Source: Aulosira sp. ZfuVER01
GTDB taxonomy: Bacteria > Cyanobacteriota > Cyanobacteriia > Cyanobacteriales > Nostocaceae
Assembly (NCBI GenBank): GCA_034530615.2
Contig: JAVRCV020000013.1
Location: 1-52,117, forward strand
Length of the DNA stretch: 52,117 bases
Direction of reading: 5' to 3'
In this document: positions 3,129 through 50,985 of the stretch, piece after piece
Numbering within the stretch: position 1 is the stretch's first letter
Layout of the letters: every line of letters starts with the position of its first letter
Program-made: the position numbers and the translations under genes
The notes under the pieces: model-generated
The model's database searches: none
What the model was told of the DNA's origin: nothing
The model's input: the letters and a program-made list of their open reading frames with translations, nothing else

Positions 3129-3724
3129 ATTCTAGTAAAGTGTCGCTTATTGTATTAAGTGTTTAGTCCAGCTTCTGTGCTGACCACTAAAAACCATAAG
3201 AGTATTAATCACGAAATCATTGCCAAGATTTTTAAAGATATTGTAAATAAGTTATAGATTTTGTGTATATAAAGCCAAAAAATGAACTACGAGGTTAGTT
3301 TAACTCTTTATTTGGTGATACTAGTCAATGTGTTGATGCTGTAATACTGTCGGGACAGCCAGGATTTGACAGGGGTGGTGTTCAGTTACCCCTAGTTTTG
3401 TTGTAGTGCTGGGAGAGAATCAAAGGTTGTAGGTACAGCGATCGCACCCAGAAAAATATCATTAAATTTTTGAATTGCAATTAGAATTGTGGTTTCTTGA
3501 TAACTTAGAAAACAACCCATATATGAAGTCATCGCAGAGAATTTTGATTATCTTGGCTGCGCTAGTATTTCCACGTATCTTTGCTAAATCGTACAAGACG
3601 ACGTTTTCACTTAGCTGTTGCACAGCATTATTGCCATGTAGCCATGCCACAAAGTAGACTCTCTTTATACATTAAGTATCAGGGTAGCATAATAATTTCT
3701 GTATAGGCGAGTAGTTATTAGAAA

Positions 3725-5323
3725 CTACAAAATCGCTGGAAGTCCTACTGCTTTCTGCTCAACAAACTTGCCATCAAAACCTATAGCTTGGTTTTCGATA
3801 GTTCTAGCATCAGCTAGAGCCTTACGGAGTTCAGCACGTTCCATCTGATCCTGAATTCCACCCAAGATGTAAATTAGTAACTTCGCTGCTAAATCTCGTC
3901 CAGCAACTTGTACACGCTTTTTATTGGGATCATATAAAACGCCATACCAAAGAGATTGCGGATACTCCATGCCACTAAAGCCACCTTGCTGGTCAAATTT
4001 GCGTAGTTTTTTAAAAATATCTGCCAGGGAAAAACCTTTTTTAAAAACCAATATTCCGAGAGCTTGAGCTAATGCTACTTGAGCTATAGGACGGAACAGC
4101 ATATTTCCTTCGCCCCCATCTTTTTCAAAGCTGAACCTTCGCAGTTGAGGTGCATCTTCGTGTTCAAGAATCTTATAAGTGGGAAGGCTAGCTAAATAAT
4201 CAAATAGATTTCTAAATTCATTAATTCCCTGCTCAATTTCATTATCCTCTGGTCGCATGGGAATTAGACCTTTTTCTAAAGGTTTCCAGTGAGGGAATTT
4301 TTGCCCTAAATATCTTTCTGACATATCTTGAATAGCTTGCAAAGTTGTTAAAACTGTAGAGTTTGCTGCAACTGTTGCACTATTCCAATTAACGCGAGGT
4401 TTGCGATTTGGTTGCTGTTCTAAAAGTGGATGGTTTGTAGCGATTTTTCGCGCCACAATTGCAAAACCATCATCTTCATTTAACTGTGCTAACTGGCCTT
4501 TAGTCAAAGGTGCAGCCATCAGGTTAACATGAACAAAAATTGATCTCACCCTTCGCCTCGCCTGGGTACGAGTTTCCCCTGGAGAAACCGCACAAATGAA
4601 TTCAATGCCAATTTTTTCTTTGGGTAAGCTTTGTAAATAAGCAGGGTCTACTTGATATTGCTCAATCAAATCATCTATTTTAATAAAGCTATCATCAGCA
4701 CTTTTATCTTTTTTGTAGCGCTGAAGTTTCCCTGTTTTAATTAACTCCATTAAACCTTGTACACCCATCAGGCGATGTTGACCATCTAATGCATAAATAG
4801 TTACATTGTCTTCGGAAATGTTAAGTAAACCTACTTTACCGTCTTTATCCAGAGGAGTAAAATCGGTAGTTGATTTAGTTGCTATTCCTTCACTGTTCCA
4901 CTCAGCAGCTTTAGCATCATCTACCCAAGATTGATTAATTACTACCAGTACTGGCGGAAACTTATGATTTCTTCTCGCTGCTAAATACTGAACCAAAGGT
5001 GCTTGACGTGACCAATCAAGGGGACGCTGCTGAATTTCATCAATACTATCTGCGTCAATCTCGATGTTATCTGTTTCAGAATTATACTTTTTCTGAAACA
5101 GGGGTAAGCCAGAAGCGAAGTGAACCCGACCTGCAAACCATTCTAGAGTCACAGAACCAACATAGGCTTCAGTACCACCCATCTCGGTTTTTTGAACGAG
5201 AATCTGGTCTTTCTTCTCCAGAAATTTCTCGAAGAGTAAAGCCAGTACCTGTTTATCCTTGTTGTCTCGTTCTAGGTATTCTCTAGCGATGTCAGTGGTT
5301 GGCTCAGATTTACTATCTTTCAT
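3725..5323 (-). CDS. DGQHR-domain (DndB-like) protein
   Basis: 532 aa; 'IQQRPLD', 'FPPVLVV', 'ALDGQHRL', 'IFVHVN' motifs; divergent from dndC. Confidence 0.9.
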   Translation of the reverse strand: MKDSKSEPTTDIAREYLERDNKDKQVLALLFEKFLEKKDQILVQKTEMGGTEAYVGSVTLEWFAGRVHFASGLPLFQKKYNSETDNIEIDADSIDEIQQRPLDWSRQAPLVQYLAARRNHKFPPVLVVINQSWVDDAKAAEWNSEGIATKSTTDFTPLDKDGKVGLLNISEDNVTIYALDGQHRLMGVQGLMELIKTGKLQRYKKDKSADDSFIKIDDLIEQYQVDPAYLQSLPKEKIGIEFICAVSPGETRTQARRRVRSIFVHVNLMAAPLTKGQLAQLNEDDGFAIVARKIATNHPLLEQQPNRKPRVNWNSATVAANSTVLTTLQAIQDMSERYLGQKFPHWKPLEKGLIPMRPEDNEIEQGINEFRNLFDYLASLPTYKILEHEDAPQLRRFSFEKDGGEGNMLFRPIAQVALAQALGILVFKKGFSLADIFKKLRKFDQQGGFSGMEYPQSLWYGVLYDPNKKRVQVAGRDLAAKLLIYILGGIQDQMERAELRKALADARTIENQAIGFDGKFVEQKAVGLPAIL

Positions 5324-5487: not shown

Positions 5488-7155
5488 ATGGCTACAGCAC
5501 AACAGCCAGAAAACAAAAGCCAGCAAGCACGTACCGTTGCAGAGTTAGTAGAAGACATAGAGAATCTTACCAGAGAAATCCAAGATTTATATTGCTCAGA
5601 CCAAATACCTTGGGTACTAGGAGTTTCTTGGGGAAAAGATTCAACTACAACGCTACAGATCGTCTGGAATGCGATCGCCATTCTTCCCCAAGAAAAACGA
5701 ACTAAAAAAATCCATGTAATTACTACAGATACTCAGGTAGAAAATCCCATCGTCTCTGCTTGGGTACGCAAATCCTTACAACAGCTAAAGTCTGCTGCAC
5801 AAGAACAAGGAATGCCTGTAGAACCTCATTTGCTGCAACCAGTTGTTCAAGACACATTTTGGGTAAACCTGATTGGTAAAGGTTATCCAGCACCGCGTAA
5901 TCAATTCCGCTGGTGTACCCAACGTTTAAAAATTAATCCCGCTAATCACTTCATACGTGAGATGGTTCGAGCCAACGGTGAAACCATTCTTGTTTTGGGT
6001 ACTCGCAAAGCCGAAAGCGCAAAACGTGCAGCTACAATGGAAAAGCATCAAATGGGTAGAGTGCGTGATCGCCTCAGCCCCAATGCCAGTTTACCCAACT
6101 CTCTGATTTACACGCCCATTGAAGACTGGAGCAATAATGATGTCTGGATTTACCTAAATCAATCTGACAATCCTTGGGGAAAAAGCAATAAAGAGTTATT
6201 CAGTATGTATCGAGGTGCGACAGCAGATAATGAATGTCCGCTTGTAGTTGATACTTCTACTCCTAGCTGTGGCGATTCCCGATTTGGTTGTTGGGTTTGT
6301 ACCCTGGTGAATCAGGATAAATCGATGGAGGCGATGATCCAAAATGATGAAGAGAAAGAATGGATGCAGCCTTTATTAGATATCCGTAATGAATTAGATA
6401 TTAAAGATGACCGGGATAAGAGAGACTTCCGCCGGATATGGGGTGAAGTTCAACTATTTGAGCGCAATAAAGATGGTGAACTTTCTGTTGAACCAATACC
6501 TGGCCCATATACTAAATATTGGCGCGAATATTGGCTGAGAAAATTATTAGCAGCGCAAACTAAAATCCGCCGCACCGCACCAGAAAATATGCGCGATATT
6601 ACCCTAATTACTCTCGAAGAAATGAGTGAAATTCGTCGCATTTGGCTAGAAGACAAACACGAATTTGATGATAGTTTACCCCGCATTTATGAAGAAGTGA
6701 CTGGTGAAGTATTTCAAGATCCCCGTCCTGGGGCTGGTAATAGTTTACTCGGTAGTGATGAATGGGCGGTATTAGAAGAAATCTGTGAAGATGATGCGAT
6801 GCACTTGGAACTGATGGCGAAGTTGTTGGATACAGAACGCCAGTTTCGTAAGATGGCGCGGCGCGTGGGGATATATGACACTTTAGAAAAATGCTTTGCA
6901 ACCAGTTCCCGTTCTAAAGAAGAAGCAGTTAAAAATGCTCATTTGAAGCGCGATTTGAAAACAGCAATTGACCAAGGTGATGTTGAAAAGGTTAAGCAGC
7001 TAACTTTAGGGGATTTTGTGGTAACGAATGAACAAGCGGAAGTAACGACGGAACAATCTGACGTAAAAAATGAATTACCCGCTAGCAAATCAAAGACTTG
7101 GGCAAACATGAAATTTAAAAATAAGGAAACAACGCCTGAAAGCGATTCTAATTAA
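5488..7155 (+). CDS. dndC: DNA phosphorothioation sulfurtransferase DndC
   Basis: PAPS-reductase family: SxGKDS, 'TDTQVENP', 'GYPAP…FRWCT.RLKI.P', 'GTRKAES', 'SCGDSRFGCWVCT'; good RBS (GGAG). Confidence 0.95.
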   Translation: MATAQQPENKSQQARTVAELVEDIENLTREIQDLYCSDQIPWVLGVSWGKDSTTTLQIVWNAIAILPQEKRTKKIHVITTDTQVENPIVSAWVRKSLQQLKSAAQEQGMPVEPHLLQPVVQDTFWVNLIGKGYPAPRNQFRWCTQRLKINPANHFIREMVRANGETILVLGTRKAESAKRAATMEKHQMGRVRDRLSPNASLPNSLIYTPIEDWSNNDVWIYLNQSDNPWGKSNKELFSMYRGATADNECPLVVDTSTPSCGDSRFGCWVCTLVNQDKSMEAMIQNDEEKEWMQPLLDIRNELDIKDDRDKRDFRRIWGEVQLFERNKDGELSVEPIPGPYTKYWREYWLRKLLAAQTKIRRTAPENMRDITLITLEEMSEIRRIWLEDKHEFDDSLPRIYEEVTGEVFQDPRPGAGNSLLGSDEWAVLEEICEDDAMHLELMAKLLDTERQFRKMARRVGIYDTLEKCFATSSRSKEEAVKNAHLKRDLKTAIDQGDVEKVKQLTLGDFVVTNEQAEVTTEQSDVKNELPASKSKTWANMKFKNKETTPESDSN

Positions 7156-7380: not shown

Positions 7381-9360
7381 ATGATATTTCTTGAACTCGT
7401 ATTACAAAACTTTGGCCCTTACTCTGGTAAACAGGTAATCAATCTTGACCCAAGAAATCATGAAAATTCTCGCCCGATTATTCTGTTAGGTGGGATGAAT
7501 GGTGGCGGAAAAACCACGTTGATGGATGCAATTCGCCTCGCCCTTTATGGTCATCGCGCCCAATGTTCAACCCGTGGTAACTTAAGTTATAGCGATTTTC
7601 TTACCCAATGCGTTAATAGCAAAACCGATCCAGTTGATAAAACGCGCATTGAATTAGTCTTTGAACATATTGAAAATGACAAGCCAGTAAAATACCGGGT
7701 TGTGCGTACTTGGGAAAAAAATCCTAAAGATGGTAAAGACCATTTAGGGATTTTAGATTCTCATGAATGGCTTGATACAGCTTTAGTAAATATTTGGGAT
7801 GAATATATTGAAAATCTCTTACCATTGGGAATTTCTAACTTATTTTTATTTGATGGTGAACAAGTTAAAGAACTCGCAGAACAGGAAATACCACCGCCAA
7901 TTGTAGTAGATGCAATTAGCGGACTTTTAGGGCTAGAGTTAGCAGAAAGATTAGCATTAGATTTAGATATATTAGTCAATCGCAAACGCAAAGAACTTGC
8001 TGATACGAAAGAATTGGCAAATCTTGAAGAAATTGAAGATAAGCTGAAAGGGTTACAAGAAGCTTACAATACAGAATCGCAATTAATTACATCTCTCCAA
8101 GAAAATTTAATAACAGCCGAAAATAGACAGCAAGAAGCTGTGAATAAATTTATTTCTGAGGGCGGTAAAATTGCTGGAGAACGCAGTCAGTTAGAAAAAC
8201 AAAAGCAAGAAAGAATTGGTGAAGCAGAAAGAGCGCGTCAAGCGATGTGTGAATTAGCTGCTGATTTTTTACCTCTGGGATTAATTGAACCTCTACTAAA
8301 TCAGGCTTACATTCAAGGAGATAAAGAGTTTCGTGTTCAACAAGCAAAAGTAGCTCATAATTTATTAATTGAAAGAGATAAAAAGTTACTTAATTTGATT
8401 AATAAATTAGCTATTGCTGAAGAAGTAGTAACTCAGATTCAAGAATTTCTCCAACAAGAAAATCAAGATTTAGATAACGCAGTCATCGCCGAACCTTGGT
8501 TATTAGCTGATACAGAAACGCTGCATCAGTTAGATAATGTCATGCATCACTACCTAGTTTATGCAAAAACCAAGGCTAAAGATAAAATCACAGTTCTTCA
8601 GTCTCAGGAAGAAGAAATTATCACTTTAGAAAGACAAATTCAAACCGCAGCCTCACCAGAAGAATATCAAAGACTGGTTGATGAATTACAACAAGCACAA
8701 CAGCAAGTTGCGGAAGCTAAAGCTGCTTGCGAAATAGCCAAACGCCATTTAGATGAATTAGAAACTGAGATCCACAATACTAAAAAATACCTAGAAAAAT
8801 ATAGTGAAACCAATATTGATCGCAAAAATAGAGAACATATCATTACCTCTGCGACAAAAGTTCAAGAAACACTCAAACTTTTCCGGGAAAAATTAACTTT
8901 GAGAAAACTCAACAAATTAGAAGTAGAAGTTACAGAATGCTTCCGTTACCTGCTACACAAATCTGATTTAGTCCATCGCGTTGCAATTGATACTAAAAGT
9001 TTTAGCCTTTCGCTTTACGACTTAAATGGTCAACCCGTTCCTAAACATCGCCTTTCTGCTGGGGAAAAACAACTACTTGCGATCGCCTTTCTTTGGGGTT
9101 TAGCCAGAGTCTCCGGTCGCCACTTACCAGTAGCCATTGACACACCCCTCGGCAGACTTGACTCCTCACACCGCAGTAACCTAGTAGAACGTTACTTTCC
9201 CTCCGCCAGCCATCAAGTAATATTACTATCTACTGATACTGAAATAGGTAAAAAAGAAGTCGAAACACTGAGAGAAAACGAAGCGATCGCTCACGAATAC
9301 CTACTCAAATACAACTCTACCACCCGTCAAACAACCATAAAACCAGGCTACTTCTGGTAG
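7381..9360 (+). CDS. dndD: DNA sulfur modification protein DndD (SMC-like ATPase)
   Basis: Walker A GMNGGGKT, 'LFLFDGEQ', coiled coil, signature LSAGEKQ, 'IDTPLGRLDSSHR', 'SHQVILLSTDTEI'. Confidence 0.95.
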   Translation: MIFLELVLQNFGPYSGKQVINLDPRNHENSRPIILLGGMNGGGKTTLMDAIRLALYGHRAQCSTRGNLSYSDFLTQCVNSKTDPVDKTRIELVFEHIENDKPVKYRVVRTWEKNPKDGKDHLGILDSHEWLDTALVNIWDEYIENLLPLGISNLFLFDGEQVKELAEQEIPPPIVVDAISGLLGLELAERLALDLDILVNRKRKELADTKELANLEEIEDKLKGLQEAYNTESQLITSLQENLITAENRQQEAVNKFISEGGKIAGERSQLEKQKQERIGEAERARQAMCELAADFLPLGLIEPLLNQAYIQGDKEFRVQQAKVAHNLLIERDKKLLNLINKLAIAEEVVTQIQEFLQQENQDLDNAVIAEPWLLADTETLHQLDNVMHHYLVYAKTKAKDKITVLQSQEEEIITLERQIQTAASPEEYQRLVDELQQAQQQVAEAKAACEIAKRHLDELETEIHNTKKYLEKYSETNIDRKNREHIITSATKVQETLKLFREKLTLRKLNKLEVEVTECFRYLLHKSDLVHRVAIDTKSFSLSLYDLNGQPVPKHRLSAGEKQLLAIAFLWGLARVSGRHLPVAIDTPLGRLDSSHRSNLVERYFPSASHQVILLSTDTEIGKKEVETLRENEAIAHEYLLKYNSTTRQTTIKPGYFW

Positions 9361-9410
9361 CTTTTTCTCTGCGTTCTCTGCGCCTCTGCGGTTCGTTACT
9401 TAAATAACCT

Positions 9411-9797
9411 ATGGAATCACCAATCGAAAGAATTAAACTTTCCCAAACAGCCAAAGACCAACTGCTCAAACTCCGGCGCAGCACCAAAATCGACCAATGG
9501 AATATATTATGTCGATGGGCATTTTGCCGTTCCCTCGCAGAACCTACTCCACCTTCCCCTGTACCCATTCCCCAAGATAGCAACGTGGAAATGACATGGC
9601 GCGTCTTTGGCGGCGAAATGTCTGATATTCTTCTCCTCACCCTCAAGCAACGGTGTCACAACGACGGTTACGCCACCGATAAAGAAACCCTAGCTACCCA
9701 ATTTCGCCTGCATTTACATCGAGGAATTGCCTACTTAGCAGGCGATTCAAATATCAAGAAAATTGAAGATTTAATTGAATTAGCGCTGAAAGATTGA
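9411..9797 (+). CDS. dndE: DNA sulfur modification protein DndE
   Basis: 128 aa; 'RIKLSQTAKDQL', 'WNILCRWAFCRSL', 'FRLHLHRGI'; follows dndD. Confidence 0.93.
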   Translation: MESPIERIKLSQTAKDQLLKLRRSTKIDQWNILCRWAFCRSLAEPTPPSPVPIPQDSNVEMTWRVFGGEMSDILLLTLKQRCHNDGYATDKETLATQFRLHLHRGIAYLAGDSNIKKIEDLIELALKD

Positions 9798-9869: not shown

Positions 9870-11321
9870 ATGTCGGAGAGCTACTTAGAAATTGAGCGTC
9901 ATCGCGCTGCGATCGCCCGCATTGACATCTCTCGTCCTGTACGATTAGCTATAGAATCGGCAATCATCAATCAAGAGACTACTTTTTTTGATTACGGTTG
10001 CGGCTACGGTGGTGATGTCCAGCGCGTGGCAAATTTAGGTTACACCAGTGCAGGTTGGGACCCATACTACTATCCCGATGCATCAATTACCACCGCCGAT
10101 GTTGTCAATTTGGGCTATGTCCTTAACGTTATTGAAGACCCCCAGGAACGCCGCGAAAGCCTAATCAAAGCTTGGGAACTCACCCGTAAAGTCTTAATTG
10201 TCGCCGCTCAAATTCTCATTAATGCTCCTAGTAAGACACAATTAGCTTACAGCGATGGTATTGTTACCCGTCGCAATACTTTTCAGAAATATTACGAACA
10301 AGAAGAACTTAAAAGTTACATTGATGAGGTACTGAATGTAGATGCTGTCCCCGTGGCTTTAGGCGTTTACTTTGTATTTCGTGATGAAACCGAAAAAGAA
10401 AATTACAAAGCTATCCGCTTCTTTTCTCGAACTTCCACCCCACGAATCCGCATCCCCAGCAAGCGGTTTGAAGATTACCAAGAAATACTCGCACCGTTGA
10501 TGGCTTTTTTCACCAAACGCGGCAGATTACCAGTCAAAGGTGAATTGAGTAACGAACAAGAAATACTCAGCGAATTTGGTAACTTCCGCCGTGCCTTTAG
10601 CGTAGTATTACAAGCTACCGACGAAGCAGAATGGGATGCGATCGCTTATCGTCGTTCCCTTGATATCCAAGTTTATCTCGCCCTCACCCACTTTGAGCAA
10701 CGTCCGTCATGGCATAAACTCGCTCCAGAAATGCGTCACGACATCAAAGCCTTTTTTGGCAGTTATGAAGAAGCGTGTGCAGTTGCTGACCAAAAACTTT
10801 TTAGCTTAGGTCAACCTAGAGTAGTCCAAACAGCTTGCGAAAAAAGCAAAATTGGCAAACATACCCGTGGTGCTTTGTATGTCCATGTTTCAGCCCTCGC
10901 AGAACTCGATGCTTTACTGCGAATTTATGAAGGTTGCGCCAGTCGTACCATTGGACGTGTAGATGGTGCTACCTTAATTAAATATTGCACCGACAAACCG
11001 CAAATTTGCTATCTGTTTTACCCAGACTTTGATACTGACCCCCATCCCGCCTTAAAAGCTAGTATTATTATTGACTTTATTACTTTAAAAATCACTCACC
11101 GCGACTACCAAACCAGAGCAAATCCTCCCATTCTGCACCGCAAAGAAACCTTTGTTACACCCAACTACCCAAGCTACGAAGAATTTGCTCAACTCACCCA
11201 ACAAGAACAGCAATTAGGGCTGCTCAAGCAAAAAAGTGATATCGGTACCCGTGAAGGCTGGGAAAAATGCCTCGCCGTACATGGTGTAGAAATTAGGGGG
11301 CATCAAGTTTACCAAGTTTAG
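9870..11321 (+). CDS. DNA phosphorothioation-associated putative methyltransferase
   Basis: SAM motif 'FFDYGCGYGGD', 'GWDPYY', 'NLGYVLNVIED', 'TFQKYYEQ', 'NPPILHRKETFV'; follows dndE. Confidence 0.88.
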   Translation: MSESYLEIERHRAAIARIDISRPVRLAIESAIINQETTFFDYGCGYGGDVQRVANLGYTSAGWDPYYYPDASITTADVVNLGYVLNVIEDPQERRESLIKAWELTRKVLIVAAQILINAPSKTQLAYSDGIVTRRNTFQKYYEQEELKSYIDEVLNVDAVPVALGVYFVFRDETEKENYKAIRFFSRTSTPRIRIPSKRFEDYQEILAPLMAFFTKRGRLPVKGELSNEQEILSEFGNFRRAFSVVLQATDEAEWDAIAYRRSLDIQVYLALTHFEQRPSWHKLAPEMRHDIKAFFGSYEEACAVADQKLFSLGQPRVVQTACEKSKIGKHTRGALYVHVSALAELDALLRIYEGCASRTIGRVDGATLIKYCTDKPQICYLFYPDFDTDPHPALKASIIIDFITLKITHRDYQTRANPPILHRKETFVTPNYPSYEEFAQLTQQEQQLGLLKQKSDIGTREGWEKCLAVHGVEIRGHQVYQV

Positions 11322-16712: not shown

Positions 16713-16726
16713 AGTACTAATGTTCT
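16713..16726 (+). promoter_or_regulatory. LexA box upstream of lexA
   Basis: AGTACTAATGTTCT matches the cyanobacterial consensus RGTAC-N3-DGTWCB, ending 33 bp before the lexA ATG. Confidence 0.85.
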
Positions 16727-16758
16727 AGGGACATTTGTATTTACTTCCCAATAAAATT

Positions 16759-17364
16759 ATGGAACGTTTAACTGAAGCTCAACAAGAACTTTATGAATGG
16801 CTGGCGGAATATATCCGAACTCATCAGCATTCACCTTCAATTAGGCAAATGATGCAGGCGATGAATTTGAAGTCACCAGCACCAATTCAAAGTCGTTTAG
16901 AACATTTACGCACTAAAGGATATATTGAATGGACTGAAGGGAAAGCACGAACAATCAGAATTTTGCGTCCAGTAGCTACAGGTGTACCCATTTTAGGTAC
17001 TATTGCTGCTGGCGGTTTAATAGAACCTTTTACAGATGCTGTCGAACATTTAGACATTACTAATTTTTCTTTACCTCCCCAAAGCTATGCTTTGCGAGTA
17101 GCTGGTGACAGCATGATTGAAGATTTAATTGCTGATGGTGATTTAGTATTTCTGCGTCCAGTACCAGAACCAAATCAACTCAAAAATGGCACTATCGTTG
17201 CCGCTAGAGTTGATGGACATGGTACTACATTAAAGCGCTTTTATCGCAGTGGCGATCGCGTTACCCTCAAACCTGCTAATGCTAAGTATCAACCTATTGA
17301 AGTTCCTGCTATACACGTGCAGGTGCAAGGTTCTTTAGTCGCTGTTTGGCGTGATTATAACTAG
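16759..17364 (+). CDS. lexA: transcriptional repressor LexA
   Basis: wHTH 'SPSIRQM', Ala-Gly cleavage site 'IAAGG', 'GDSM', 'TLKR'. Confidence 0.96.
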   Translation: MERLTEAQQELYEWLAEYIRTHQHSPSIRQMMQAMNLKSPAPIQSRLEHLRTKGYIEWTEGKARTIRILRPVATGVPILGTIAAGGLIEPFTDAVEHLDITNFSLPPQSYALRVAGDSMIEDLIADGDLVFLRPVPEPNQLKNGTIVAARVDGHGTTLKRFYRSGDRVTLKPANAKYQPIEVPAIHVQVQGSLVAVWRDYN

Positions 17365-17494: not shown

Positions 17495-18976
17495 ATGTAC
17501 CTGACGCTAAATCGAGTACAGGAACTGCCCGCTTTCCGCTTACGATTACCATTGTTAAGGGAAAGTCAGGGCAGTTATCAAACTCAACAACCATTATCAG
17601 GATGTCCGAGAATGCCACAATCTCTGCAATTGCGGCAATACCAGCGACAAGCTATTACTAGCTGGTTTGCTAACAATGGTAGAGGGACGCTGAAAATGGC
17701 GACTGGTAGTGGTAAAACTATCACAGCATTGGCGATCGCTTGTGAATTATATCAGCAGATTAACTTACAAGTCTTGGTGGTGGTGTGTCCCTATCGTCAT
17801 CTTGTCACCCAATGGGCGCGAGAATGCGAAAAATTTAACTTACAGCCGATTTTAGCTTTCGAGAATGTCCGCAATTGGCAAAGTCAACTTTCGACGCAAA
17901 TTTATAATCTGCGTTCTGGTTCCCAAAGATTTGTCACGGTAATTACCACCAACTCCACATTAATTGGCGATGGCTTTCAGTCACAACTGAAATATTTACC
18001 CGACAGAACTTTGATTATTGGTGATGAAGCCCATAATTTAGGCGCACCAAAGTTAGAAGAAAGTTTACCACGCCGCGTTGGGTTGCGATTGGCTTTGTCT
18101 GCCACACCGGAAAGGTACTTTGATGATGATGGCACCCAATCTTTGTTTGATTATTTTGGCCCTGTGCTTCAGCCAGAATTTACTTTGAAGGATGCGATCG
18201 CTGGTGGTGCTTTGGTACATTATCTGTATTACCCGGTTTTGGTGGAATTAACTGAAGCCGAAAGCATTGCCTATTTAAAATTAACTCGCAGAATTGGGCG
18301 AGCATTACTATATCGGGAAAAAGAAAATGGTGCAGTTGGAGATTTTGAGGATAACGAAGATTTAAAGCCGTTATTGATGCAACGCGCCAGGTTAATTGGT
18401 GCTGCAGAAAACAAATTAACTGCTTTGCGAGAATTAATGGCTACTCGCAAGGATACAACTCACACCCTATTCTATTGCAGCGATGGCTCCCAAGAACTTG
18501 GACAGCGTTCATCTCTGCGCCAACTCAAAGCCGTAGCTAAAATTCTCGGCGTAGAACTGGGGTACAAAGTCAGTACCTACACAGCCCAAACTTCTTTACA
18601 AGAAAGAGAAGTGTTACGCCGTCAATTTGAAAGCGGTGAATTGCAAGGTTTGGTAGCAATTCGCTGTTTAGATGAAGGTGTGGATATCCCAGAAATTCAA
18701 ACTGCGGTGATTTTATCAAGTTCTGGTAATCCCCGTCAGTTTATCCAACGGCGGGGACGAGTTTTGCGTCCTCACCCTGGAAAAGAACGCGCCACTATTT
18801 TCGATATGATTGTATTACCACCAGATTTAGAACGGGAAACCATAGAGGTAGAACGCAATCTGTTGAAAAAAGAATTGCGGCGCTTTGTGGAGTTTGCCGA
18901 TTTAGCTGACAACGCTGGAGAAGCGAGAATGAAATTACTCGCTTTACAAAAGCGGTACGGATTGTTAGATATATGA
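17495..18976 (+). CDS. SF2 helicase, DNA phosphorothioation-associated restriction type (PbeA-like, no PLD domain)
   Basis: 'MATGSGKT', DEAH, 'LSATP', 'CLDEGVD', 'QRRGRVLR', 'EL.RF.EFA..A.N'; start uncertain. Confidence 0.85.
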   Translation: MYLTLNRVQELPAFRLRLPLLRESQGSYQTQQPLSGCPRMPQSLQLRQYQRQAITSWFANNGRGTLKMATGSGKTITALAIACELYQQINLQVLVVVCPYRHLVTQWARECEKFNLQPILAFENVRNWQSQLSTQIYNLRSGSQRFVTVITTNSTLIGDGFQSQLKYLPDRTLIIGDEAHNLGAPKLEESLPRRVGLRLALSATPERYFDDDGTQSLFDYFGPVLQPEFTLKDAIAGGALVHYLYYPVLVELTEAESIAYLKLTRRIGRALLYREKENGAVGDFEDNEDLKPLLMQRARLIGAAENKLTALRELMATRKDTTHTLFYCSDGSQELGQRSSLRQLKAVAKILGVELGYKVSTYTAQTSLQEREVLRRQFESGELQGLVAIRCLDEGVDIPEIQTAVILSSSGNPRQFIQRRGRVLRPHPGKERATIFDMIVLPPDLERETIEVERNLLKKELRRFVEFADLADNAGEARMKLLALQKRYGLLDI

Positions 18977-19300
18977 ACCGGCGATAAACGCCGATGAAAG
19001 CAGATAAATAATCGGCGGTTTAAATTTCATTTTTGTAAAATTTTTTATAGCTGAAGAATTAGGGACAAATGTATAGGAAAATAATATTATGCTATTAATA
19101 TAATAGGATATAAGTAAAATTTTTAAAGGCGCTAATGCTCCATTATATTATATACTTAAGTATACTAGATCTCACCTCATAATAAAGCCTTGCACACAAA
19201 AAAATTGAGAAATTAAAGATAAGACAAACCGTGACTTAACGGATGCGATCGCAGCAGGAAACACAGGTAAAATAAATAAAAAAACTATTTACCATCCGCA

Positions 19301-19474
19301 ATGTCACCAGACCAAAATATTGATGATGTGCAGGAGCCAATTACCAGCGCCCCGCCGGAAGTACGGCAGATTATTGAACGGGTGTGGAAGCTGGAAAAAG
19401 GCAGACTAGAGAAGAGAATTAACAGTCACATTAACGATGAAATATTAGCGATCATTAAAGAAGAGGTGCGATGA
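19301..19474 (+). CDS. small 57-aa protein translationally coupled to the SMC ATPase (not in ORF track)
   Basis: MSPDQNIDDVQEPITSAPPEVRQIIERVWKLEKGRLEKRINSHINDEILAIIKEEVR*; ATGA overlap with 19471. Confidence 0.8.
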   Translation: MSPDQNIDDVQEPITSAPPEVRQIIERVWKLEKGRLEKRINSHINDEILAIIKEEVR

Positions 19475-21543
19475 AGCTGACTTCAATTAAGCTATGCAAT
19501 TTTCGCTCCTTTTATGGTACGACACCAGAGATAGTGATTTCCGGGGGAGATGTCCTCAACACAACGATTATTCATGGCAATAATGGCTCTGGAAAAACTA
19601 GTTTACTCAATGCTTTTACCTGGGTGTTATATGAGAAGTTTAGTGCAGCTTTTGCATCGGTAGAGCAGCTAGTTAATAAAAGAGCGATCGCAGAAGCGAA
19701 ACCCAAACAAGCTGTAGAATGTTGGGTAGAAATTGGCTGGGAACATGAAGGTAAACGCTACCGCGTCAAACGCGCTAGTCGGGTTTACAAAAACGAGAGT
19801 GATTTTGAAGCTGGTAAAACTCAGTTAACCATGTGGGTAGGTGGTGATGATGGTAAATGGTATTTTCCACCTCAGCAACCAGAAGATATCATCAATCAAA
19901 TTTTACCCGTTAGTTTGCATCAATATTTCTTCTTTGACGGTGAACGGATTGAAGAGATAGTTCGCTCTGATAAAAAAGCGGAAATTGCCGAAGCTACAAA
20001 GATATTCTTGGGAGTAGAAGTAATTAACCGTTCGATTAAACATTTAGGTGAAGCGAAAAAAAGTCTTGAAAATGACTTAAAAGCTATTGGTGATTCCGAA
20101 ATTAAACAGTTGTTGCGACAGCAAGAAAAGATAGAAAGAGAGATTGAGAGTATCACCAACCGCCAAACAGAAATTCAACAAGAGTTAGAATATCAACAAA
20201 CATTTAAAAAAGAGACAAGTAACCGCTTACGAGAACTGAGTGCGGCTAAAGAATTACAGGAACGTTGTCAAAATTTAGAAGTACAAAACCAAGCCTATAA
20301 GGAAGAATATAAGAAAAATCGGGAAGCCCTAAAAAAAATTATCTCTGCACGTGGTTACACAGTTCTACTCGCAGAAACTACAGCCCAGTTTCGGGAAATT
20401 ATGCATGATTTGAAGCAGCGAGGCGAATTGACTTCGGGAATTTCGCGAGAGTTTGTAAATGAATTACTCAATTCTCAACGTTGTATTTGCGGTGCAGATT
20501 TAAATCACGGTAGTCATTCCCATGCAAATGTCACTGTCTGGTTAGATAAAGCAGGTTCCTCGGCTGTGGAAGAAACAGCAATTCGCATGAGTGCCCAAGT
20601 AGATGAAATTGATAAGCAAGCAACAGCATTTTGGCAAGAAGTTGATAGAGAACAAGCGAGAATTAACCAGTTAAGACAAAATATTTCGCAAATTGAAAGC
20701 GAATTAGATAACATTCAAGAACGTTTACGTAAAGATGCTAACGAAGAAATTAGCAGCTTGCAGAAACGCTTAGACGAAATTGAAAATAAAATTGATGAAT
20801 TAAATAGAGAACAAGGCGCTAACCAACAGCAAATTTCTCACTTCACAACTGAAATCGAAGCTTTGGGTAAACAAATCGCCAAGCAAAAACTGAATGAAGA
20901 ACGGCAAGCATTAGCCCAGCGTCGGATTAATGCTACCCAAGATGCAATTGAACGGTTAACAGAAGTGCGAAACCGTCAAGAAAAGCAATTTCGCTTGCAA
21001 CTGGAGAAGCGGGTACAGGAGATATTTGCAGAAATTTCCTTTACGCCTTATATCCCGAAAATCAGTGAAAAATATGAACTCACACTGGTAGAAAATACAG
21101 CCGGAGTAGAAGCACCAGTAGCAGCTTCGACTGGAGAGAATCAAATTCTCAGTTTATCTTTTATTGCCAGCATTATTGATAGAGTGCGCGAATGGAGCGA
21201 AAAGCGGAAAATGCTGATGCTACCAGAAAGCAGCACCTTCCCAATTGTCATGGATTCGCCTTTTGGTAGTTTGGATGAAATCTCGCGGCGACACATTGCC
21301 CAAACAATTCCCAAGTTAGCGAATCAGTTGATTGTGTTGGTGACAAAGACACAGTGGCGGGGTGAAGTTGAGGAAGAAATGGCAGATAGAATTGGTAGGG
21401 AATATGTGTTGACTTACTTTTCTTCCAAGCCAGATTGCGAACAAGATTATATCGAATTGGGTGGGGAAAGATATCCTTTAGTAAGGCAAAGTCCGAATGA
21501 GTTTGAATATACGGAAGTTGTGGAAGTGAAACGAGATTGGTAG
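19471..21543 (+). CDS. SMC/Rad50-like AAA ATPase (DndD paralog, PbeC-like)
   Basis: Walker A GNNGSGKT, 'YFFFDGERI', central CICG, signature ASTGENQ, 'VMDSPFGSLD'. Confidence 0.9.
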   Translation: MKLTSIKLCNFRSFYGTTPEIVISGGDVLNTTIIHGNNGSGKTSLLNAFTWVLYEKFSAAFASVEQLVNKRAIAEAKPKQAVECWVEIGWEHEGKRYRVKRASRVYKNESDFEAGKTQLTMWVGGDDGKWYFPPQQPEDIINQILPVSLHQYFFFDGERIEEIVRSDKKAEIAEATKIFLGVEVINRSIKHLGEAKKSLENDLKAIGDSEIKQLLRQQEKIEREIESITNRQTEIQQELEYQQTFKKETSNRLRELSAAKELQERCQNLEVQNQAYKEEYKKNREALKKIISARGYTVLLAETTAQFREIMHDLKQRGELTSGISREFVNELLNSQRCICGADLNHGSHSHANVTVWLDKAGSSAVEETAIRMSAQVDEIDKQATAFWQEVDREQARINQLRQNISQIESELDNIQERLRKDANEEISSLQKRLDEIENKIDELNREQGANQQQISHFTTEIEALGKQIAKQKLNEERQALAQRRINATQDAIERLTEVRNRQEKQFRLQLEKRVQEIFAEISFTPYIPKISEKYELTLVENTAGVEAPVAASTGENQILSLSFIASIIDRVREWSEKRKMLMLPESSTFPIVMDSPFGSLDEISRRHIAQTIPKLANQLIVLVTKTQWRGEVEEEMADRIGREYVLTYFSSKPDCEQDYIELGGERYPLVRQSPNEFEYTEVVEVKRDW

Positions 21544-22326: not shown

Positions 22327-23619
22327 ATGAAAATCATTGCCTATAGTTACACTGACCCCTTGATCGACTCATCTGTTGAGCCTGATGATTGGGGATGGGA
22401 TGTAGATCGGGTTTATCATGATTTAGGAAAGCGATCGCAATTGCAACAACTCTTCAGTGATTGCAAAGCTGGCACGGCAACTTATCTCTTGATCCGGCGC
22501 TTGGAAGAGTTGGGTGATAATGTAAAAGAAGTAAGCGATCGCCTCAACGAACTCGAAGCAATGGGTATAGTGGTGATTGCTACTGAACAGCCCTACACTT
22601 CAGAAAAGGGCAATCTCCGCGCTGAATTACTGAAATTGCTACAAGAAATCCAACGCCAGCAACGCAGTCGCCGTATTCGCCAAGGACACGCCCGCAACCG
22701 TTTAGAAGCCGCACCCCCACCAGGTAAGCCACCCTACGGCTATCGCAGAAGTAAAGATAAATATATAGTTGACCGCAGTACTTCTCCAGTTGTCAAAGAC
22801 TTTTTTGAACAATTTTTACTTTATGGTTCCTTGCGGGGAGCAGTTCGTTATTTAGCTAAAAAATACGGCAAAAAAATCTCCGTCACTACAGGGAGACGCT
22901 GGCTAACTAATCCAGTATATCGGGGAAATACCGCTTACCAAGATGGCGAAATTATCTCTAATACCCATATTCCCATCATTTCCCCAGAAGAAGCCGCCCA
23001 AGTTGACCGATTGTTACGCCGTAACAGTCGTTTACCATCTCGAACTGCTAGCGCACCGCGTTCGCTGGCTGGGTTGGTTGTCTGTGCAGAATGTCAATCT
23101 CACATGACTGTGACCCGTGTAACCCAACATCGTCAAGATAAAGAGTATCTTTATTTACGTCCGATTAACTGTCCCCAAAGTCCAAAATGTCGCGCCATTG
23201 CTTATCAGCAAGTTTTGGATCGGACAATTACAAAAGTTTGTCAAGACTTACCCCTAGCTGTAGCGGGGATGAATTTTCCCCAATTAGATGCCATTAAGAA
23301 TAGTTTAGGAGAAGCGATCGCCCGTCAGCAAGAAATACTGACTCAGTTACCTGCTTTAGTAGAAACTGGAGTATTAGATGCGGAAACAGCAAAGTTAAGA
23401 GCATACAAACTCCGCACAGAAATTTCTGCACTTCAAGCAAAGTTGGCTACTCTTCCACCAGTAAATTTGCGTTCTGTTGCTCAAGCTGTTTCAATTCCCC
23501 AATTTTGGTTAGACTTGTCAGAAGCAGAGCGACGATTTTATTTTCGCGAATTTATTCGGCAAATTGAGATTGTTCGTCAAGATACGGATTGGAACTTGCA
23601 AATTATTTTCATTTTCTAA
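22327..23619 (+). CDS. large serine recombinase family protein with degenerate catalytic domain
   Basis: 'GKPPYGY', 'LTNPVYRG', 'HIPIIS.EE', zinc ribbon 'LAGLVVCAEC', coiled coil, 'ERR…IRQIEI'. Confidence 0.85.
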   Translation: MKIIAYSYTDPLIDSSVEPDDWGWDVDRVYHDLGKRSQLQQLFSDCKAGTATYLLIRRLEELGDNVKEVSDRLNELEAMGIVVIATEQPYTSEKGNLRAELLKLLQEIQRQQRSRRIRQGHARNRLEAAPPPGKPPYGYRRSKDKYIVDRSTSPVVKDFFEQFLLYGSLRGAVRYLAKKYGKKISVTTGRRWLTNPVYRGNTAYQDGEIISNTHIPIISPEEAAQVDRLLRRNSRLPSRTASAPRSLAGLVVCAECQSHMTVTRVTQHRQDKEYLYLRPINCPQSPKCRAIAYQQVLDRTITKVCQDLPLAVAGMNFPQLDAIKNSLGEAIARQQEILTQLPALVETGVLDAETAKLRAYKLRTEISALQAKLATLPPVNLRSVAQAVSIPQFWLDLSEAERRFYFREFIRQIEIVRQDTDWNLQIIFIF

Positions 23620-49419: not shown

Positions 49420-50985
49420 TCAGTGTTCAATGTAATGAAAACTTTTAACAAAATCGATCACCATGTTTAATGAAGGCAAGCTATATTGAGTAGATTCATT
49501 GGACATATTATCAAAAAATGCCACATTACCATCGGATTGATTAATAAATCGTTTACCGAAATAGGGATTATCATATAAAATCAAAGTTTGCGCACTAGAA
49601 TTTGTCAATATTGTCTGGGTAGGAGTTTTAAAGAAATTTAATTTTGCAGCTAATTCCAGAATTTTTTGGATTTCCCGAATAGACTGAGTCTGATTCCTAG
49701 CTTCCTCGATCGCAGTTCTTAATTGCCTCACCCGATGGGGTATTTTTAGACCCATCTGAGATATATCTTCACCTTTGAGCATTTCCACTACGTTGTCAAT
49801 ATTTTTTTGCGTGTTGCTGGCATCATGAAAGGGCAGAATCACCATATAAGCGATGGGAAATAAGTCTTCGTCGTTCTCGACTCGGAAGGTGAACACAGTC
49901 CGGCGACGCCCAATTTCCATAGTGGGCGGTTGTTTTAGCGTCCGGTATTGGCGAGAAATTTGGTAATAGGCACCAGCTAGAGCAAAGTTAGCTTCATGTT
50001 CGAGGGCGGCATCAACGATAATCCGGATGGTTGGCGGCGTTTCATTAAAAAAGTCCCGTGCATCTTCAGCGTTAAACTTTTGAATGATGGAGCGATCGCC
50101 TGTGGGAGAGAGGTCAATCCATTCACAAGTTATACCTTCGGTTTTTAAACCAAACCTAGAAGTGGCGTAAAGTTTAGCCCCAGTTAACGCAGCTCCTGTT
50201 AAGTCGGCTCCAATCCATTCCGCCTTAATTAATTTTACTTGAGTTAAATTGGCGTGTACTAAACTGGCATTAGTTAAATTAGCATTGCTCAGGTCTGCCC
50301 CAGTTAAGTTAGCTCCGCTTAATTTAGCTTTGCTTAAATCTGCCCAACGGAGATTGGCCCCACTCAAATCCGCCCAACGAAGATTCGCCCCACTCAAATC
50401 TGCGCCACTGAGGTTAGCACGGCTAAGATTAACTTTTCTCAGTTCAGCATCTCGCAGATTGGCGCTACTGAGATCCGCACGACTCAAATCGGCGGCGTGG
50501 AGATTAGCCATCTCTAGGTTTGCACCCGTTAAAGAACAGCCTCGTAAACTCGCCTCACTTAAGTTCGCACGACGGAGATTCGCTTGTCGGAGAGTGGCTT
50601 CTCGCAGGTCGGCGTTGCTAAGGTTAGCCTCAGACAGGTCTGCACAACTTAGGTCTGCACGAATTACCTCGGCACGAACTAATGAAGCTTCCTTGAGTTG
50701 GGCGTGATTGAGGTCTGCACGAATTAGATTTGCGACATTGAGACTGGCATTGTTGAGATTTGCCCTCACAAGGTTCACGCCACTTAATCTAGCTACATTC
50801 AGCGTGGCATTGCTCAAGTTGGCTTTGCTGAGATTCGCTCCACTCAAATTTACTATACTCAAGTTGGCTTGGCTAAGATTCACACCACTGAGTTTGACGC
50901 CACTTAAGTTAGCTTCAGAGAGGTCAATACCAGTAAAATCAATCACTCCTGCCGCGTATTTTTCCAGTAATTCTTCTATAGTCAT
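49420..50985 (-). CDS. pentapeptide repeat protein with C-terminal domain
   Basis: ~270 aa of A(N/D)LXX repeats followed by a globular region. Confidence 0.93.
   Translation of the reverse strand: MTIEELLEKYAAGVIDFTGIDLSEANLSGVKLSGVNLSQANLSIVNLSGANLSKANLSNATLNVARLSGVNLVRANLNNASLNVANLIRADLNHAQLKEASLVRAEVIRADLSCADLSEANLSNADLREATLRQANLRRANLSEASLRGCSLTGANLEMANLHAADLSRADLSSANLRDAELRKVNLSRANLSGADLSGANLRWADLSGANLRWADLSKAKLSGANLTGADLSNANLTNASLVHANLTQVKLIKAEWIGADLTGAALTGAKLYATSRFGLKTEGITCEWIDLSPTGDRSIIQKFNAEDARDFFNETPPTIRIIVDAALEHEANFALAGAYYQISRQYRTLKQPPTMEIGRRRTVFTFRVENDEDLFPIAYMVILPFHDASNTQKNIDNVVEMLKGEDISQMGLKIPHRVRQLRTAIEEARNQTQSIREIQKILELAAKLNFFKTPTQTILTNSSAQTLILYDNPYFGKRFINQSDGNVAFFDNMSNESTQYSLPSLNMVIDFVKSFHYIEH

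Follow-up and report, generated by a model that had tools for sequence, protein, structure and literature searches.

The PbeABCD system of the archaeon Haloterrigena jeotgali A29 is the closest described relative of the genes analyzed here, and the available text of that study reports that cleavage of viral DNA was not seen (Xiong 2019, PMC6459918). In the available text of a second study, PbeC is treated as a CxC-hook ATPase, PbeB as a small protein and PbeD as the cognate of DndE, whose strands are predicted to set target specificity (Rakesh 2024, PMC10853773). Cyanobacterial dnd genes, which belong to DNA phosphorothioation (PT), were described as enriched in Nostocales and devoid of dndFGH, with a proposed antioxidant role; the accessible part of that study makes no mention of pbe (Jian 2021, PMC8569181). 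Here, we analyzed a 52,117-nucleotide stretch of Aulosira sp. ZfuVER01 (contig JAVRCV020000013.1, positions 1 to 52,117, forward strand; hereafter the window), which carries dndC, dndD and dndE and, at some distance, three genes for a helicase, a 57-residue protein and an ATPase. On sequence evidence, this triad is a cyanobacterial PbeABC without a DNA-cutting domain. Such genes have already been catalogued in print: supplementary file 6 of Xiong 2019, as available, lists 553 PbeAC and gives "Cyanobacteria" 158 times, and the genes from two of our comparison loci (L019 and L020), 95% and 94% identical to the ATPase of the window, are tabulated there as PbeC (PMC6459918 supplement). The string "cyanobact" is absent from the main texts of PMC6459918 and PMC10853773, a statement confined to main text, as the Rakesh supplements may show such loci. 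The features that set the present variant apart were not found described; our literature search, which had little reach into subscription journals and did not extend to the Rakesh supplements, returned no account of PLD loss in one clade, of near-fixation throughout an order, or of matched PbeD-DndC alleles.

We compared the window with 80 related loci, 78 of which have a complete ATPase open reading frame (ORF) and form the base of all counts out of 78, and with a second sample of 20 loci chosen from across the order. Profile comparison gave PbeA and PbeC as the best matches, in agreement with the Pbe-like identity suggested in the initial annotation. The helicase scored 674 bits against TIGR04095 (cut-off 600) and 554 bits against the PADLOC PbeA model, and its five catalytic motifs are kept across 80 orthologues. 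The PADLOC PbeA alignment begins at about profile position 228-257 and comprises the C-terminal part only, leaving the N-terminus of the profile unmatched; the ORF contains no PLD domain, just as the initial annotation had read it. A hidden Markov model (HMM) built from 117 PbeA N-termini found no convincing PbeA-type PLD elsewhere in the genome (best score 20 bits at E 4e-4, compared with 300-310 bits for controls), and a tblastn search of the genome for a stand-alone PLD gene was also negative. Among the best 150 PbeA representatives, 128 are at least 620 residues long, and 98 of those carry an HxK...G[ST]xN motif; the 22 below 620 residues may be fragments or independent PLD losses. A FastTree phylogeny was built on 90 helicase domains, of which 14 came from the window or the loci and the other 76 were drawn from the first 80 representatives; a PLD-fused copy in locus L003 served as the root. 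In this tree, the 13 short cyanobacterial helicases form a single clade (support 0.97) beside a 708-residue PLD-fused protein and among PLD-fused PbeA. Therefore, loss of the PLD domain is likely the derived state. The N-terminal extension of the helicase (window 17555-17578) corresponds in alignment to the linker that follows PLD in full-length PbeA and is probably a remnant of the junction with the lost domain. Among the 61 related genomes, three contain PLD-bearing stretches of PbeA (E<=1e-60), which represent separate systems or a fragment. Two loci (L001:3969-8627 and L003:6992-10877) hold a second, PLD-bearing Pbe-type set that adjoins dnd, besides the nuclease-less set. Elsewhere the helicase gene is broken by insertions, with a 609-residue ORF in L008 (5273-9339) and several ORFs in L022.

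The ATPase matched PADLOC PbeC (PDLC02753) with 1200 bits. Its central CICG, pointed out in the initial annotation, occupies residues 338-341, and C338, C340 and G341 are invariant in 35/35 aligned orthologues; Walker A, the STGE.Q signature and the Walker B/D-loop MDSPFGSLD are kept in the same 35 sequences. The protein had been taken for an SMC ATPase. However, a true SMC has a hinge and a coiled coil of 800-1000 residues according to the available text of PMC10853773, and this protein has 690 residues in total, CxC at its centre, no hinge, and scores far below the cut-offs of the SMC models. We rejected SMC identity and place the protein instead in the clade of CxC-hook ABC ATPases as laid out in the same text (PMC10853773). 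Its score against DndD (TIGR03185) was 175 bits, below the cut-off of 245.85, and Rad50 matches, from profiles and from a PDB sequence search, were weak and far below the Rad50 cut-off. No Lamassu model was among the best 25 of the 79 PADLOC families matched. Excisable elements are known in heterocyst-forming cyanobacteria, and one such element could account for the ATPase gene of relative G013, in which ~78 kb separate the part up to about residue 76-98 from the rest (C1:625787-626080 and 703851-705689).

Between helicase and ATPase, the 57-residue ORF is genuine, as proposed, and its stop codon overlaps the ATPase start as ATGA. It has 235 homologues; the gene is present in 77/78 related loci, with the same overlap in 76, and lies immediately 5' of the ATPase gene in 20/20 order-wide loci. 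This abundance and conserved position argue that the ORF is not a chance one. Searches of Pfam, NCBIfam and PADLOC gave no match, and an Atlas search returned unnamed clusters only; position and size fit PbeB.

The apparent lack of a fourth gene holds for the window only. A gene that passes the TIGR04062 cut-off lies on another contig of the same genome (G000:C55:64649-65110; L013:9650-10111) and encodes the 153-residue PbeD, and 68/78 related loci have a TIGR04062 gene 3' of the ATPase gene on the same strand. The predicted model of PbeD (predicted local distance difference test score, pLDDT, 68.7) has DndE as its top fold (7x4e, Z 8.4, root-mean-square deviation 3.3, 107 aligned; 5wtu, Z 7.7), and the top Foldseek match is 4lrv (probability 0.94, E 0.2). 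PbeD is thus predicted to adopt the double ribbon-helix-helix fold of DndE, with modest scores that are consistent with the position of the gene. The order in relatives is argF-lexA-pbeA-pbeB-pbeC-(variable)-pbeD-slot-DGQHR-dndC, where the slot is the interval between pbeD and the gene for a DGQHR protein. In the Aulosira genome, the segment that carries pbeD together with an SLH/DUF3370 gene is found elsewhere, two flanking blocks are exchanged in order, and stubs of two slot genes are left, one beside pbeD and the other in the window (3561-3650). A detached, reduced three-gene module is therefore not a property of the system: relatives have the four-gene set, and the detachment, as judged from the assembly, is a rearrangement peculiar to this genome. 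Its four genes do not form a single operon, as a 324-bp gap follows the helicase gene, which is not coupled to the small ORF, and pbeD is on a separate contig.

The module keeps company with dnd. Of the 61 relatives, 58 contain the ATPase; the count is likewise 58 for TIGR04062, for DndC and for DndD, and the same three genomes, one of them 93% complete, are without all four; a helicase orthologue is present in 57/61. In G016 the pbe and dnd genes exist as frameshifted pieces. In a sample of 121 genomes from the phylum, the short helicase occurs in 38 (37 above the cut-off and one split gene), that is, in 38/44 genomes inside the order of this organism and 0/77 outside it, and DndD was found in 38/38 of these. 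Related genomes are not independent, and the informative absences amount to about four lineages. One further genome of the sample (G146:C26:1553-8129) carries dndC and dndD but nothing of the module, possibly by separate acquisition, and the three other sampled members of its genus are without dndD. A triad independent of dndCDE was seen neither among the 61 relatives nor in the 121-genome sample, and the tie to Dnd put forward in the initial annotation stands. Proximity is not needed for it: in 5/18 same-contig placements the module is kept with the ATPase gene >0.9 Mb from dndC, and all five loci without dndC in the retrieved stretch have dndC elsewhere in the genome. Some "solitary" entries in the Xiong table therefore reflect its 10-kb rule, and at least one entry scored there without dndCD has dndC 33-35 kb away (PMC6459918, as available). 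Moreover, in six near-complete genomes of one genus (G002, G003, G004, G011, G013 and G014) dndD lies >100 kb from dndC, so that neighbourhood-based surveys undercount complete Dnd systems.

We next compared the tempo of evolution of the genes in the 41 loci that have all eight, using Spearman correlation with lexA and argF. The helicase, the ATPase and the DGQHR protein follow both housekeeping genes (rho 0.84-0.87), as does the small protein (0.73-0.74); PbeD (0.19-0.20) and DndC (0.47-0.50) do not track them. The DGQHR protein (window 3725-5323), which separates the pbeD slot from dndC in 60/78 loci, is conserved like housekeeping genes and is probably a further fixed member of the system.

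PbeD alleles, in turn, pair with DndC alleles; at the level of the predicted DNA-binding strand of PbeD, the pairing extends across genera. In 29 loci from one ATPase cluster, five PbeD alleles are each found with a single DndC allele (those with 11 and 8 loci share one; those with 4, 3 and 3 have others), and PbeD and DndC correlate in these loci with r 0.66 (0/2000 permutations), compared with r 0.13 for the intervening DGQHR gene. The most informative stretch of PbeD is residues 58-68, where the ribbon-helix-helix matches start in the model. With classes set post hoc from 56 loci, 19/21 dereplicated loci match. When no DndC classes were used, DndC identity across ATPase clusters was 0.827 between loci with the same PbeD 5-mer and 0.758 between those with different ones (29 dereplicated loci; 0/5000), an effect that lies mainly in residues 21-290. 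Out of sample, 12 of 30 further genomes fell into a predefined class, and 9/12 of these match, against 2.0-3.7 expected. The dndC type of the Aulosira genome is also the type predicted from its unlinked pbeD. There is no support for canonical DndE as the allele-tracking factor, its strands appearing nearly constant in the 11/30 genomes yielding a DndE match. A PDB sequence search with DndC returned nothing. Because its allelic variation goes in step with DndC, PbeD is likely a reader of the host's sulfur marks.

The reading we favor, to which we give about an even chance, is that PbeA without its PLD domain, PbeB, PbeC and the displaced PbeD together make up an ATP-powered complex that scans DNA, recognizes the motif marked by DndC and blocks unmarked DNA without cutting of its own. 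The identity of the family is far surer than this mechanism. In such a mechanism the four Pbe proteins would assemble as one complex, PbeC would use its zinc hook and ATPase heads to clamp and scan DNA, the second strand of PbeD would confer motif specificity, and the helicase would translocate or stall replication; unmarked foreign DNA would be blocked and not cut by the complex, and nucleases in the pbeD slot would be optional add-ons. No cutting of its own would be needed because archaeal PbeABCD showed no cleavage in the available account (PMC6459918) and because 17/65 slots have only a DndB-like gene or are empty. An anti-viral role in cyanobacteria is assumed by analogy with the archaeal system. 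A wider proposal, which we put forward tentatively, is that a Pbe motor free of nuclease became fixed in one order as a near-core writer-reader set, in which the N-terminal half of DndC may pick the PT motif and the second ribbon strand of PbeD may read it, matched alleles being swapped between genera while the helicase-ATPase engine, equipped with a plug-in slot for effectors, stays conserved.

Several observations weigh against the scanning complex and the allele pairing behind it. Near-fixation and vertical descent of the helicase and ATPase are unusual for defence genes. A class-free Mantel test between short PbeD and DndC segments gave r -0.06 (3493/5000), and in the 5-mer comparison the controls lean weakly the same way (DGQHR 264, ATPase 340, helicase 169/5000), lexA giving 2102/5000. 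Across genera, this 5-mer test draws on five motif classes only. Out of sample, 3/12 genomes mismatch and 18/30 fall outside the classes. The pbeD and dndC genes are linked in most loci, and co-transfer can contribute to their pairing. One relative (G026) is without a helicase match, though its operon begins at a contig end. Finally, Rakesh 2024 argues in its available text that the action includes cleavage by HKD (PMC10853773).

A rather unlikely alternative is that the module has been domesticated for the upkeep of host PT marks, finding marked or damaged sites and helping to install, repair or turn over the marks, possibly with induction through lexA. This would suit a single-copy module that is near-universal in the order and vertically inherited, in which the PLD loss is older than the spread of the order, and PbeD-DndC allele matching fits it equally well. 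The available text of PMC8569181, with dndFGH absent from cyanobacteria and an antioxidant role proposed for dnd, points the same way. In 65 Nostocales loci the helicase gene starts 27-301 bp behind autoregulated lexA, and pbeA may be co-transcribed with it; a LexA box identical to the lexA box tabulated in the accessible part of PMC3091678 precedes lexA in 65/65 loci. However, lexA adjoins the module in 1/20 order-wide loci, so any SOS link is confined to Nostocales. With their deep turnover of alleles, PbeD and DndC resemble conflict genes, as does the nuclease-rich slot, and in G146 the module is missing although dndC and dndD are present.

The slot content bears on another explanation, which we judge unlikely: that the helicase, small protein and ATPase are a motor in need of a separate effector, with PbeD as the adaptor for a slot nuclease, and that the Aulosira copy is disarmed. 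A layout of motor plus adaptor for a nuclease resembles Lamassu-like systems. Slot families were annotated from one representative apiece. Nuclease-class genes occupy the slot in 40/65 loci; in 27 of these the product is an HNH protein with below-cut-off similarity to NF045808, and in the others it is another HNH, a GmrSD or a weak GIY-YIG protein; 14/65 slots have a DndB-like gene alone, three are empty, and the remainder have other genes. Slot content follows the PbeD allele, and neighbouring nucleases have been proposed as restriction components (PMC10853773, available text). Such tracking is, however, also expected from adjacency, and the slots with only a DndB-like gene or none count against an obligatory effector. 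The suggestion that the module borrows a nuclease thus suits many relatives but not the Aulosira genome, which keeps only the slot-gene stubs, the family of the 3561..3650 stub having a weak GIY-YIG match (member E 4.6e-4, below cut-off). Beyond the stub, no homologue of any slot nuclease was found in this genome at E<1e-5, yet all four pbe genes are intact. Lastly, it is very improbable that the genes are a duplicate helicase-ATPase unit of Rad50 type with a general role in DNA repair and no relation to PT, in line with a repair option that the initial annotation had also entertained: weak Rad50 similarity and lexA adjacency would suit it, but it is largely refuted by the joint absence of module and dnd, no searched genome has the short helicase or the ATPase without dndD, the best matches are the PbeA and PbeC models, and the partner has a predicted DndE fold.

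The features of the locus are collected in Table 1. As the initial annotation described, housekeeping genes separate dnd from the triad (ampG, a 132-residue ORF, a GNAT gene, a HEAT-repeat gene, argF and lexA); the triad begins 7.7 kb past the dndE stop, 6.2 kb past the methyltransferase gene and 130 bp past the end of lexA. On the 3' side of pbeC, a minus-strand ORF of 67 residues is followed by a VOC protein gene. A gene for a serine recombinase, XisF-like but below cut-off, lies 0.8 kb 3' of the ATPase gene (window 22327-23619), near one rearrangement junction. Further downstream, a pentapeptide-repeat-like gene (window 49420-50985) gives rise to long spurious ORFs on its opposite strand. 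A promoter and terminator scan gave results at chance level.

Table 1. Genes and sites of the pbe and dnd region, in coordinates of the window.
Feature	Position	Strand	Basis
pbeA without PLD domain, SF2 helicase, TIGR04095, 493 residues	17495..18976	+	profile match, motifs, tree
pbeB-position small protein, 57 residues	19301..19474	+	position and size only
pbeC, CxC zinc-hook ABC ATPase, 690 residues, DndD paralogue	19471..21543	+	PADLOC PbeC
lexA	16735..17364	+	TIGR00498
LexA box, 5' of lexA	16713..16726	+	exact match, the one such site in the window
Long DGQHR protein, 532 residues	3725..5323	-	TIGR03187
Stub (first 30 codons) of slot gene	3561..3650	-	80% identity to residues 1-30 of L040 slot protein
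dndC	5488..7155	+	TIGR03183
dndD	7381..9360	+	TIGR03185 above cut-off
dndE	9411..9797	+	TIGR03184 above cut-off
Dnd-associated putative methyltransferase	9870..11321	+	TIGR04096 above cut-off

These results bear on a dispute. In the available texts, Pbe cutting was not seen by Xiong 2019 (PMC6459918) and was inferred from the HKD motif by Rakesh 2024 (PMC10853773). A natural deletion of HKD with intact motor motifs across a cyanobacterial order that includes genetically tractable strains makes this question testable. Cyanobacterial dnd has been described as being without a restriction partner (PMC8569181, as available); in our data a partner is nearly always present. The matched PbeD and DndC alleles point to specific residues for PT motif specificity and, if the proposal is true, locate where this specificity is encoded and mean that Pbe acts without a nuclease of its own. 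That the genes were already catalogued limits the novelty.

Compared with known systems, an ABC-ATPase head interrupted by a coiled coil is shared with Rad50/SbcC, SMC and Lamassu LmuB; the present protein differs from these in its 690 residues, its CxC hook and its lack of a hinge. DndD-DndE of the Dnd system is likewise an ATPase with a ribbon-helix-helix partner, paralogous to the pair found here, but this ATPase, unlike DndD, has a CxC hook, and the true dndD and dndE lie at 7381-9797. Both NCBIfam models passed here, TIGR04095 (dnd_restrict_1) and TIGR04062 (dnd_assoc_4), are already named as phosphorothioation-associated; the former carries the name "restriction enzyme", whereas this protein has no nuclease domain, and for the latter the DndE fold comes from the predicted model made in this work. 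The CxC-ATPase system of Rakesh 2024, in its available text (PMC10853773), shares the CxC zinc hook, the position as sister clade of DndD, a DndE-fold partner, a small protein and nearby nucleases. In that system the vast majority have an HKD DNase, from which cleavage was inferred, and the small protein evolves rapidly; in the clade studied here HKD is lost and the small protein is conserved, with a mean identity of 86%. The closest likeness is to PbeABCD of H. jeotgali A29 as available in PMC6459918, with the same four gene families, ancestral order and dndC/dndD linkage, and with small subunits of similar size (57 residues here and 66 there; 153 and 152). In contrast to that system, the Aulosira set has no PLD domain, is not one transcription unit and has pbeD on another contig, and its family is near-fixed in one order and not patchy.

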